Virus record (IMG/VR): IMGVR_UViG_2579779149_000003
DNA length: 22,140 bases
Source: a virus
Taxonomy: Duplodnaviria > Heunggongvirae > Uroviricota > Caudoviricetes
Direction: 5' to 3' (one strand)
Shown here: one piece after another, positions 11,921 to 18,688 of the stretch
How the letters are laid out: each line of letters opens with the position of its first letter
Numbering within the stretch: position 1 is the stretch's first letter
Notes under the pieces: generated by a model
Database searches by the model: none
Told to the model about the DNA's origin: nothing
What the model saw: the letters and a program-made list of their open reading frames with translations, nothing else
Made by a program: the position numbers and the translations under genes

Positions 11921-11995
<75 letters not shown>

Positions 11996-11998
11996 ATA

Positions 11999-12074
<76 letters not shown>

Positions 12075-12076
12075 AC

Positions 12077-12153
12077 TGGACCGCCACCGGGGACTCGAAC
12101 CTCGCACACTCAACTTAAAGGGTTGACGCTCTTTCCTGATGAGCTAGTGGCGG
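12077..12153 (-). tRNA. tRNA-like gene with atypical anticodon loop CCUUUAA (anticodon UUU by position, C at position 33); identity uncertain
   Basis: Acceptor CCGCCAC/GUGGCGG, D-arm GCUC...GAGC, anticodon stem UCAAC/GUUGA, T-arm CGAGG-UUCGAGU-CCCCG (one mismatch), encoded CCA. Packed 2 nt and 1 nt from neighbouring tRNAs. Confidence 0.45.
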
Positions 12154-12154
12154 T

Positions 12155-12230
12155 TGGTGGCCCTTGCTGGATTTGAACCAGCGACCTGGCGATTATGAGT
12201 CGCTCGCTCTCACCACTGAGCTAAAGGGCC
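12155..12230 (-). tRNA. ileZ: tRNA with anticodon CAU (IleX/IleZ-like tRNA-Ile2, or Met)
   Basis: Reverse complement GGCCCUUUAGCUCAGUGGUGAGAGCGAGCGACUCAUAAUCGCCAGGUCGCUGGUUCAAAUCCAGCAAGGGCCACCA closely resembles E. coli tRNA-Ile2 (ileX) and the ileZ gene of lambdoid prophages; T-arm GCUGG/CCAGC is perfect. Confidence 0.8.
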
Positions 12231-16149: not shown

Positions 16150-16174
16150 AAAAACAAAACCCGCCGAAGCGGGT
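16150..16174 (-). terminator. Rho-independent terminator downstream of the lipoprotein gene
   Basis: Minus-strand RNA CCCGC-UUCG-GCGGG followed by UUUUGUUUUU (stem 16060-series plus coordinates 16160..16173; a-run 16150..16159). Confidence 0.5.
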
Positions 16175-16372
16175 ATGCTAAAACAAACTGAAAGTAATAT
16201 ACCGGACTTGTAAAGGAACGATAGAATAATTATTGGATTAAACCCTGACTCAATCCAGATTTTATAGGCAACAACTACGGACTAATCATCACAGTCATGT
16301 TTGATAGGCTTAGTCCACATTGGGTGAGGGTTTACGGCGTTTTCACTAATAATTTATCGTCCAAACTATACA

Positions 16373-16765
16373 CTACTGCCCTGTTTTAACGAAGTTTTTA
16401 AAGGAAACAACTGCCTGATAGGGGTTTGGTTGACAGCCAAACATATTATCGCAAAAAGGCTTGATGAAAATTCTTGAGGATCCATCTTCATTTGGCATTT
16501 TACTCACTTGATAAGCGAGGAATGGACTATTTGGAGAGGGATTATAAGTGGAAATTAGCGTGTCTGTCGCCGTTTGAATTTTCCATGAGGAATTATTAGC
16601 CAACCAGAATTGCGCTCGTTTCCAATAAAAGTCACATTGCTTTTCATCATTACATGTTAGTGGCTTCATTGCTTCTGCTTTCAACGCTGGATCGACCTTT
16701 GCTGCACACCCTCCCAACATTACTGTTGCAATCATTACACCTGCGACTAAAACAAGTTTCTTCAT
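16373..16765 (-). CDS. Putative lipoprotein (130 aa), AT-rich moron
   Basis: MKKLVLVAGVMIATVMLGGCAAK... has a signal peptide with canonical lipobox LGGC; flanked by terminator-like hairpins sharing the 13-mer CGCCGAAGCGGGT. No family recognised. Confidence 0.7.
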   Translation of the reverse strand: MKKLVLVAGVMIATVMLGGCAAKVDPALKAEAMKPLTCNDEKQCDFYWKRAQFWLANNSSWKIQTATDTLISTYNPSPNSPFLAYQVSKMPNEDGSSRIFIKPFCDNMFGCQPNPYQAVVSFKNFVKTGQ

Positions 16766-16908
16766 CTCCCTGCCCCATCAATAAAAGTTCGGTTCTCTAA
16801 TAACTAGAGTTAATCAACGGAAAAAACGCCGAAGCGGGTTAAGTGCGGGTGCGTTGAGGATGCCTGACACATCAGAGGTGGCGAGGGATTTCTCCCCCGC
16901 CAGGTCTC

Positions 16909-17064
16909 TTACTCCTCAGGTTCGTAAGCTGTGAAGACAGCGACCTCCGTCTGGCCGGTTCGGATTCGTACCTCGCAGAGGTCTTTCCTCGTTACCAGTG
17001 CCGTCACAATGACGGTTAAACAGATGACGATCAGGGCGATTAACATCGCCTTTTGCTGCTTCAT
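16909..17064 (-). CDS. hokD: Hok-family type I toxin (HokD/RelF-like, 51 aa)
   Basis: From the internal ATG at 17064: MKQQKAMLIALIVICLTVIVTALVTRKDLCEVRIRTGQTEVAVFTAYEPEE, recognised as HokD/RelF. The in-frame upstream extension (ORF from 17121) is probably leader sequence. Confidence 0.85.
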   Translation of the reverse strand: MKQQKAMLIALIVICLTVIVTALVTRKDLCEVRIRTGQTEVAVFTAYEPEE

Positions 17065-17275
17065 AGCCTGCTTCTCCTTGCCTTTCGGCACGTAAGAGGC
17101 TAACCTAGATTTGCCGTTCATAGATTGAGCCTCAGATTAATGTTAAGCGTCTTGCAGGACGCGTAATGTTAACTGGGGCTTTTCTCTATCTGCCTTTGGT
17201 GTTCATGCCTGAGACAGATAGCCTCAAGCACCCGCAGCCATTCTACTTAACTCCCGTTACCTCGCCAATATAAAA

Positions 17276-17365
17276 TCAATCAGAAAGGCGATCCATAAGA
17301 ACAACAGCAAGACAATAAATTGCCATTACAGCTGCAATAGCCAGCGCACATTTGAGAACCAGCAC
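17276..17365 (-). CDS. Candidate small hydrophobic peptide (29 codons, GTG start) with consensus SD; type-I-toxin-like
   Basis: Minus strand reads AGGAGG-ttgtc-GTG CTG GTT CTC AAA TGT ... GAT TGA, giving (M)LVLKCALAIAAVMAIYCLAVVLMDRLSD. It is in a different frame from the rejected 107-aa ORF 17280..17603. Confidence 0.3.
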   Translation of the reverse strand: MLVLKCALAIAAVMAIYCLAVVLMDRLSD

Positions 17366-17650
17366 GACAACCTCCTGTATTGGACGTACACCAGTCCTGA
17401 TAAATATGAGGCTGTCTCATCATTGATTCAATATAACTATTGGGTATAGTTTCTGTGATTTTGTTCTGTAGAAATGGAACACAACAACCAGTCACCACCA
17501 GCACTTCTTTAAATACGCCAAGTCCGACGCAAGCTAACCTTCTAGTCCGCTTTGGGCGAAGACCGGACGTTCGATAGGTGTGAACTAGTAACTTTAAAAA
17601 CATTTAATTACCAGTAAAAAAACAAGAATATACTATCACTTTTCCAATTT

Positions 17651-18688
17651 TTAATTACCCTTATCAATTTTAAGAAATACATTTCCAATCTCATCAGAAT
17701 AATCCTGTATTATTTTTGAAATGACGGCATGATCAATGGTTGGTTTTAAAAATAAAAGTGTCACAGTAATCTGCATCAAACTAATAGCAGTAGCATGGGC
17801 TGGATCAGCCATTCCTGAATCACTTTGCCCGACCAATAATATATCATCACCAGTTTCACAGAGACCAAGCCTATTTCTCATTGCCTTGGAACCGGTGTGT
17901 ACATTCTGACTCGCCCACTTATAATAAGGGCGCATGTGTTCTAACTGAACATCTTTCTCAATAGCTCCAAACCCCACTTTATTATGGTTAGGGAAAATAT
18001 AAGATGCCCAGCCATAATTATCTGCATATTTTTTGCCATATTTTTTTATTAATATATCAAATTGAACTTTACACTCAGCTATTTCTTCAATAGTTGGACC
18101 TTTTGCTTCTAACCGGTGCTCGTACTTTTTGTGTTCCAACATTCCAGTATATGAATCAACCACTTCATGGTAGTAAAAGCGCTCAGCACACTCTTTTCCA
18201 TGCTTTGCTATAAACATAGCTGTGGCCGCTACCTCATGAAGTGCTCGCCATCTCGCTTGGGCAGCATCTGCAAATCCATTCTTTAAGAGACACAAAATTT
18301 CGTTGGCGATGTGGCAAGCTCTTGCGTGATGCCGAACGACTAAATCAAAAACCACATCCTCTTCAGAGGCAGCTTGTGGTCTATAAGAACGATTGAACTC
18401 TTCACCGGACTCCGTGCATATCACTATAAGTGTTTCGAGCAAATCAAAAGCCTCTGCCCATCTTGAAATATTTCTCTCAACAAATTCATCACAAAGAGAA
18501 CGATGTTCTCTAAGCATTGCATTGGCCGAGCCAATAAGAGATTTTTTAACGACAATGGCTATTTTGGGAATTAGGTTATTAATTTCTTTTTCGATATCAG
18601 CGTCACCAGATAAATCAAGTCTCTCTTTTAAAAGGCTGTCTATGTGCTCAAGCAAAATATTATGAAAAGTATCCATGTCATATCTCAA
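17651..18688 (-). CDS. Hypothetical 345-aa protein, AT-rich orphan gene (candidate defence or abortive-infection gene)
   Basis: Long ORF MRYDMDTFHNILLEHIDSLLKERLDLSGDADIEKEINNLIPK... with K/I/N/E-rich composition, flanked by AT-rich intergenic regions. No family recognised. Confidence 0.7.
   Translation of the reverse strand: MRYDMDTFHNILLEHIDSLLKERLDLSGDADIEKEINNLIPKIAIVVKKSLIGSANAMLREHRSLCDEFVERNISRWAEAFDLLETLIVICTESGEEFNRSYRPQAASEEDVVFDLVVRHHARACHIANEILCLLKNGFADAAQARWRALHEVAATAMFIAKHGKECAERFYYHEVVDSYTGMLEHKKYEHRLEAKGPTIEEIAECKVQFDILIKKYGKKYADNYGWASYIFPNHNKVGFGAIEKDVQLEHMRPYYKWASQNVHTGSKAMRNRLGLCETGDDILLVGQSDSGMADPAHATAISLMQITVTLLFLKPTIDHAVISKIIQDYSDEIGNVFLKIDKGN

Follow-up and report, generated by a model that had tools for sequence, protein, structure and literature searches.

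A very probably complete hok/mok/sok type I cassette in the early-right operon of a Qin-like lambdoid prophage

The hok/sok (parB) cassette of plasmid R1 serves plasmid maintenance; its hok mRNA carries a metastable 5' hairpin, switches from a closed to an open form, and, once truncated, is ended and protected by its last stem-loop (PMC9841398). The closest tested relative of the locus described here is hokW-mokW-sokW of the Stx2 phages Sp5 (VT2-Sakai) and 933W. HokW of Sp5 is toxic and hokW-sokW is a working type I system (Takada et al., PMC8621323): sokW expressed from its own promoter neutralises HokW, a -10 mutation abolishes this antitoxin activity, and both RNAs are detected in the Sp5 lysogen. 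Upon RecA-dependent induction sokW is lost and HokW appears in the inner membrane, and deletion of hokW-sokW halves the phage yield, the cassette promoting phage release (PMC8621323). The E. coli chromosome carries hokC/mokC/sokC (gef), and the hokD gene of K-12 (relF, in relBEF of the Qin prophage) is transcribed from the relB promoter (PMC3598666). According to a preprint, hok occurs in thousands of phages and prophages; the same work used HokD as a known-toxic control on the strength of earlier reports.

We analysed 22,140 nt of DNA from a tailed-phage record (IMGVR_UViG_2579779149_000003), hereafter the window. A hok/mok/sok type I cassette that belongs to the hokD/hokW subfamily lies at positions 16821..17268; it is very probably complete and under the same control as its R1 and Sp5 counterparts. 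The sequence elements are read from the window itself, while the behaviour of the RNAs is modelled on those two systems. The cassette is already known in kind: it is an ordinary, complete hok/sok copy in a lambda-like prophage.

Compared with Sp5, nucleotide identity is about 94% over the whole mRNA (an estimate from the alignment; megablast gives 93.1%), with identical tac, ucb, fbi, hok Shine-Dalgarno (SD) and Sok promoter blocks. Both toxins have 51 aa and both loci lie in a lambdoid early-right operon, but HokW differs from the window Hok at four residues near the C-terminus, the two loci carry different alleles of the patch that is complementary to the Sok 5' end, and the downstream DNA differs, the window having a lipoprotein moron between two terminator copies. 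R1 shows the same elements in the same order (tac, metastable hairpin, ucb, mok SD, dcb, fbi), likewise has 19 mok codons before hok, and has a Sok promoter TTGnnn-17-TAnCCT in register; at the same time, its Hok is only about 44% identical (the figure given for HokW, PMC8621323), its mok is out of frame and 58 nt from hok (57 nt and in frame in the window), its Sok is shorter (compared with the Rfam consensus, 16 nt are inserted in the Sok hairpin of the window), and the cassette is plasmid-borne rather than in a prophage. The hokC locus encodes a Hok 82% identical to ours behind an in-frame, 19-codon mok lead, and shares a nearly identical first 59 nt of the leader and an identical Sok 3' end, but is chromosomal and not prophage-borne, has a shorter Sok hairpin and, in K-12, is disrupted downstream by IS186.

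The toxin gene and its relation to relBE

The coding features of the cassette are as follows.

16909..17064, minus strand: hok, membrane toxin of 51 aa (HokD identity; Pfam PF01848)
17079..17074, minus strand: SD of hok itself, AAGGAG (columns invariant or nearly so in a 34-locus alignment)
16909..17121, minus strand: mok, a 70-codon frame opening 19 codons before hok and in frame with it (open reading frame list; mokC/hokC layout; PHROG 251)

The 51 codons of 16909..17064 (minus strand) translate as MKQQKAMLIALIVICLTVIVTALVTRKDLCEVRIRTGQTEVAVFTAYEPEE. This protein is 100% identical to K-12 HokD and matches Pfam HOK_GEF (PF01848) with 81.6 bits (E 3e-23; cut-off 22), which places it among the small hydrophobic Hok/Gef-family toxins and agrees with a prior sequence-only reading that had called it HokD/RelF-type. 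Its Tyr47 codon UAC and the following G form a UACG motif (16923..16926, minus strand); this motif permits A-to-I editing by TadA, which turns Tyr into Cys in those Hok proteins that have Tyr at this position (bioRxiv 2025.08.07.668861).

The same reading had remarked on the missing relBE module, and searching the whole 22-kb window by tblastn with K-12 RelB and RelE indeed gave no match (best E values 5.8 and 3.8, which is noise); the relBEF arrangement of Qin, with relB-relE upstream of hokD under one shared promoter, is not found here. A degraded relBE hidden in AT-rich upstream DNA was considered and rejected, the tblastn search being empty and the DNA upstream of 17298 being a different module elsewhere. 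That reading also took the absence of relBE as an anomaly, and here the comparison points the other way. K-12 hokD aligns with the window over 16821..17078 only (98% identity), that is, from 14 nt 5' of the hok ATG, covering the SD, an identical Hok, fbi and the terminator; K-12 Qin also shares the downstream neighbourhood (DUF968/YdfU, 80% identical). Upstream, the K-12 locus has relE instead, without hok promoter, tac, ucb, mok start, Sok promoter or Sok. Because these leader elements and Sok are gone and yet a partnerless fbi is kept, we conclude that K-12 hokD is a truncated copy.

Of 5426 complete E. coli genomes, at least 3807 carry the leader-bearing form (counted as copies covering at least 80% of a 521-nt query) and 1167 the relE-hokD junction, making the former about three times commoner. 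These counts, together with the truncation in K-12, indicate that the free-standing cassette is the common and complete form, and the textbook relBE-hokD of K-12 a truncated minority form. The same allele, at 99% identity or more, is present in 185 records, and strains D10 and APEC IMT5155 (99.8%) are examples of its carriers. The locus also occurs in 102 deposited phage genomes, where it is labelled MokW, gef homolog or host killer; all counts of phage copies given below refer to 103 usable IMG/VR phage contigs with the leader unless stated otherwise, and 58 of these encode an identical Hok. A relE-hok junction is seen in Kluyvera sp. (locus L031) as well, so this fusion is not confined to E. 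coli. E. coli ECMA0423 carries a copy (L009) with an identical Hok and a deletion inside tac, a decayed copy.

Leader, fold-back elements and Sok

The open reading frame 16909..17121 (minus strand) encodes 70 aa and begins at an ATG (17121) 57 nt 5' of the hok ATG (17064), with its own SD, GAGG, 8 nt before the start; it matches PHROG 251, "MokW-like host killing" (E 7.7e-33). The sequence-only reading had described a 19-codon in-frame extension of hok in place of a separate mok frame. The extension is real, but it does not stand instead of mok, since it is mok: RefSeq annotates mokC as just such a 19-codon in-frame extension of hokC, and 83 of the 103 phage copies have the same in-frame spacing of 57 nt. 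In the remaining 20 the spacing is 56, 58, 77 or 29 nt, and of these the 56- and 58-nt classes at least, 15 copies in all, are genuinely out of frame. Such variation argues that the frame of mok relative to hok is unimportant.

Upstream of the toxin, that reading had seen AT-rich non-coding DNA. This was imprecise: the 170 nt 5' of hok have 44–49% G+C and match Rfam RF01794, and the only strongly AT-rich stretch is 17550..17750 (23–33% G+C), comprising the end of a DUF5677 gene and its spacer. The 170 nt are the hok mRNA leader, a structured RNA. The Rfam match (RF01794, "sok") spans 17059..17233 on the minus strand and is full-length (model positions 1–157; 110 bits, gathering score 59; E 1.4e-24). 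The model consensus opens with GGGUGCUUGAG and finishes at the hok AUG. Because it spans the hok mRNA from its 5' end to the hok AUG, the model must be built in the hok sense and represent the leader complementary to Sok; the idea that Sok lies on the wrong strand, raised by a minus-strand "sok" match, was accordingly rejected. The hok promoter is sigma-70-like; its -10 ends 7 nt upstream of the first Rfam-matched base, and its TAGAAT block is also seen in phage copies. From this layout the mRNA probably starts at the G near 17233, and the mRNA of the present copy probably continues past fbi.

The remaining elements of the mRNA were placed by comparison with R1 (its sequence taken from an IncF plasmid), using published definitions (PMC9841398).

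17240..17268, minus strand: hok/mok promoter, -35 TTGGCG (17268..17263), 17-nt spacer, -10 TAGAAT (17245..17240) (consensus scan)
16847..17233, minus strand: putative hok mRNA from the predicted +1 to the end of fbi, 387 nt (Rfam start; fold; consensus pairs)
17222..17233, minus strand: tac, GGGUGCUUGAGG (pairs fbi in the full-length fold and ucb in the 3'-shortened fold)
17205..17231, minus strand: predicted metastable 5' hairpin, tac with the stretch just 3' of it (folding of the first 30 nt)
17175..17181, minus strand: ucb, AAGCCCC, anti-SD for mok (consensus helix 3; pairs tac in the shortened fold)
17096..17133, minus strand: predicted Sok-target hairpin with mok SD GAGG (17133..17130), mok ATG (17121..17119) and dcb GCCUC (17100..17096) (folding)
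16880..16901, minus strand: G+C-rich 3' stem-loop (consensus helix 12)
16847..16859, minus strand: fbi, CCUCAACGCACCC (pairs tac)

Alignment with hok/sok and with chromosomal hok loci, the check that the sequence-only reading had proposed, thus located mok, the Sok promoter (see below), tac and fbi. That reading would have taken the lack of an antisense promoter and of hok fold-back elements as the mark of a decayed locus; both are present.

In silico folding gives the pairings expected of this family. The first 30 nt of the hok mRNA form a hairpin of -16.9 kcal/mol (z = -4.6), with none of 200 shuffles equally stable, consistent with a metastable hairpin in the nascent transcript. A 422-nt mRNA from the window folds with the 5' end closed on the 3' end by tac-fbi and with ucb on the mok SD (z = -7.5). 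When fbi is removed in silico, the RNA refolds to tac-ucb and mok SD-dcb, so that both the closed and the open pairings are recovered as predicted folds. The Sok-target hairpin also folds alone (-14.7 kcal/mol, z = -4.0) and forms in the 3'-shortened mRNA. The long-range tac-fbi pairing appears in the minimum-free-energy fold and, without reference to the window, in RNAalifold; with RNAduplex, clean tac-fbi pairs were obtained when the bait was limited to the first 14 nt, whereas long 5' and 3' arms gave cluttered duplexes. By analogy with the truncated R1 mRNA, the G+C-rich 3' stem-loop is expected to end and protect the processed (active) mRNA. Among the phage copies, tac is identical in 103/103 and fbi is found in 95.

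Covariation supports these folds. A homology search supplied 53 loci from other genomes, in which tac-fbi partners were identified. The alignment comprises 34 full mRNAs and represents Escherichia, Shigella, Kluyvera, Pseudocitrobacter, Citrobacter, Photorhabdus, Pantoea and plasmid R1. RNAalifold yields a consensus of 65 pairs, of which 18 show changes on both sides. This consensus includes the 5'-3' closure, the ucb-SD helix (helix 3, with four covarying pairs in the full-length consensus), base pairing over the hok start, and the 3' stem-loop; every one of the 65 pairs also forms in the window. Paired cells amount to 97.1%, against 39–46% when partners are slid; on four of five measures none of 500 shuffles reached the observed value, and 25 of 500 did so for further pair types, although these counts overstate independence because the aligned sequences are related. 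The fourth position of tac is a U paired with A of fbi in 20 loci and a compensated C-G in 12, and compensated pairs of this kind point to a real constraint. Across genera, the hok SD and hok ATG vary little or not at all.

The antisense gene was placed on the opposite strand.

17078..17106, plus strand: Sok promoter, -35 TTGCCT (17078..17083), 17-nt spacer, -10 TAACCT (17101..17106) (register with sokC, sokB and R1)
17113..17189, plus strand: predicted Sok antisense RNA of about 77 nt, both ends placed by homology (sokC/sokB alignment)

A simple consensus promoter scan did not pick up the Sok promoter, whose -10 fits just three of six consensus positions; it was placed through homology to annotated sok genes. 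K-12 sokC and sokB and R1 Sok have in common CTCC-TTGnnn-17 nt-TAnnnT followed by a G start 6–7 nt on; the window has TTGCCT-17-TAACCT in the same register, and this promoter is carried by the majority of the 103 phage copies. The putative 5' G of Sok at 17113 was positioned on the model of the annotated sokC and sokB genes. The 3' end, GGGGCUUUUCUCUAU (to 17189), is identical to that of sokC. The RNA is predicted to fold into seven free 5' nt and a long hairpin (-33.3 kcal/mol, z = -6.4), the free 5' nt being complementary to the loop of the target hairpin. Promoter register, identity to the sokW promoter block and the predicted fold together indicate, at the sequence level, an antisense Sok gene with its own promoter; the small RNA that the earlier reading had expected around 17060..17140 is shifted to about 17113..17189.

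Complementary to the Sok 5' end, and taking in mok codons 1–3, is a 15-nt stretch (17114..17128, minus strand) that is the focus of divergence when eight close hokD/hokW-type loci are compared: differences affect 47 of its 105 cells, against 0–16 in flanking bins. In 121 phage copies whose flanks are identical, the surrounding 25–27-nt patch occurs as 21 alleles. Genomes hold a median of two co-resident copies, and up to ten. The stretch may be a specificity patch between co-resident copies.

Terminator, lipoprotein gene and prophage neighbourhood

Downstream of fbi the window departs from the usual layout.

16821..16839, minus strand: degenerate copy of the hok terminator, CGC-UUCG-GCG and U6, with GG changed to TT (direct repeat arm)
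16156..16174, minus strand: intact terminator copy, 665 nt downstream, past the lipoprotein gene (extended terminator scan)
16373..16765, minus strand: lipoprotein gene, 130 aa (PHROG 16082, unknown function)

The canonical post-fbi terminator, CCCGC-UUCG-GCGGG and a U-run, is present in 71 of the 103 phage copies. In the window the stem at 16821..16839 is down to three G-C pairs, the segment gives no significant hairpin (z = 0.13) and no call in the terminator scan, and no intrinsic terminator was found shortly after fbi. The two terminator copies form a 19-nt direct repeat flanking the lipoprotein gene, and the flank past the intact copy, read by eye, resembles the DNA right after hok in L011 and L009. 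The 665-bp lipoprotein segment (16156..16839, minus strand) therefore resembles a moron insertion at the hok terminator; its junction is common to about 252 complete E. coli genomes. The lipoprotein has a weak N-terminal match to Cor, and a homologue search returned "hypothetical protein" entries alone. A consensus scan found no promoter-like site between the broken terminator and the lipoprotein start, and transcription begun at the hok promoter may run on into the lipoprotein gene to give a hok-lipoprotein co-transcript. Because the canonical terminator is broken, the 3' end of the mRNA and its R1-type activation by 3' trimming may differ; if the co-transcript exists, fbi would be buried far from the 3' end and the trimming that arms the mRNA would be altered. 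We do not count the broken terminator against activity, because hokW of Sp5 works without a canonical one and this element thus seems dispensable.

The surrounding genes form the early-right operon of a Qin-like lambdoid prophage, with which the cassette is co-directional. The minus-strand order is a cro-like regulator, YdaT, a replication initiator, DUF977, DUF5677 and then hok, followed by the lipoprotein, a PHROG-1212 protein, DUF968 (80% identical to YdfU), RusA and, further on, tRNA genes; at its far end the window has a repressor-like gene on the plus strand. In strain D10 a QueH gene replaces the sequence upstream of 17298, which sets the cassette boundary about 30 nt upstream of the hok -35. 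The DUF5677 protein just 5' of the cassette (345 aa; 17651..18688, minus strand; gene ends with 23–39% G+C) is encoded by another accessory gene.

Between the two we noted a 29-codon hydrophobic open reading frame (17276..17365, minus strand; MLVLKCALAIAAVMAIYCLAVVLMDRLSD) with a GTG start and AGGAGG 6 nt upstream, ending 8 nt before the hok -35. The frame and its SD are kept open 5' of hok in phages Tritos, Evi, mEp460 and HannyBb (82–100% identity), with three synonymous and seven conservative non-synonymous substitutions; the 29-aa product has no Pfam or PHROG match and is unannotated on the minus strand in all records examined. Four tandem tRNA genes (11924..12230, minus strand), as in many lambdoid and Stx prophages, lie on the side where the related prophages examined carry an antiterminator gene.

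Proposed regulation and role

If the locus behaves as R1 and Sp5 do, the promoter at 17268..17240 would make a minus-strand mRNA from about 17233. In the nascent RNA tac would be held in the short 5' hairpin; in the finished RNA it would pair with fbi some 375 nt downstream while ucb covers the mok ribosome-binding site, and this closed full-length RNA would be neither translated nor bound by Sok. Loss of the fbi-bearing 3' end would let tac pair with ucb, exposing the mok start region in its hairpin. The plus-strand Sok of about 77 nt, made from the TTGCCT-17-TAACCT promoter, would then pair with the exposed hairpin through its free 5' end, blocking translation of mok and so the coupled translation of hok, and exposing the duplex to RNase III. 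Loss of Sok would permit translation of Mok followed by that of Hok, and Hok would damage the inner membrane. By analogy with Sp5, the most likely role is that the cassette is silent in the lysogen and that Hok is made after prophage induction, speeding lysis and release. This role is less certain than the intactness of the cassette, as it rests on a single tested relative.

The sequence-only reading was right to caution that activity cannot be judged by eye, and an intact-looking cassette could be inert, a relic like K-12 hokD or non-activatable like other chromosomal hok loci: hokA, hokB and hokC are reported without post-segregational killing or rifampicin response, decayed copies such as L009 exist, and the hok terminator of the window is lost, displaced by 665 nt. 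We nevertheless consider inertness highly improbable, given that all regulatory elements are in place and every consensus pair forms, that the hok and mok frames are both open, that the Sok promoter block is the same as in the tested sokW, that Sp5 hokW works although it too lacks the canonical terminator, and that this allele recurs at 99% identity or more in 185 records. A different proposal accepts an active locus and makes the 70-aa Mok-Hok fusion from the mok ATG itself the toxin, with no need for coupling to a separate hok start. The in-frame 57-nt spacing, here and in 83 of 103 phage copies, would allow it, and the RefSeq MokC likewise contains all of HokC. This too is quite improbable: a fifth of close relatives (20/103) differ in spacing, at least 15 copies being truly out of frame, the hok SD AAGGAG and hok ATG are kept (nearly) invariant across genera, and in R1, where mok is out of frame, all that counts is that its translation reaches the hok start region (PMC9841398).

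A working toxin-antitoxin system might also serve mainly prophage retention or abortive-infection defence rather than lysis. In the one prophage cassette of near-identical sequence that has been tested directly, deletion of hokW-sokW has no growth effect in the uninduced lysogen, while HokW production is RecA-dependent and phage yield is halved without the cassette (PMC8621323), and the preprint finds hok not enriched near defence systems, all of which make this reading somewhat unlikely despite the post-segregational killing given by R1 hok/sok, its lowering of T4 plating on a high-copy plasmid, and the roughly four-fold enrichment of hok in prophages (preprint). The retention or defence and lysis roles are not mutually exclusive.

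Annotation pipelines mark the 51-aa coding sequence alone and miss mok, the Sok RNA and the moron-displaced terminator, and RefSeq labels the toxin hokD, leaving mok and Sok unannotated. The moron at the terminator and an antisense Sok with a hypervariable patch might together alter the behaviour of the known cassette, a suggestion that we make tentatively and think unlikely to hold. The hypervariable patch fits an arrangement in which co-resident prophages would each keep a private Sok-hok pairing. Sok is antisense to the prophage early-right operon, which fits with read-through from the early promoter shutting off the Sok promoter by collision on induction; if true, such promoter collision would account for the RecA-dependent loss of sokW in Sp5.
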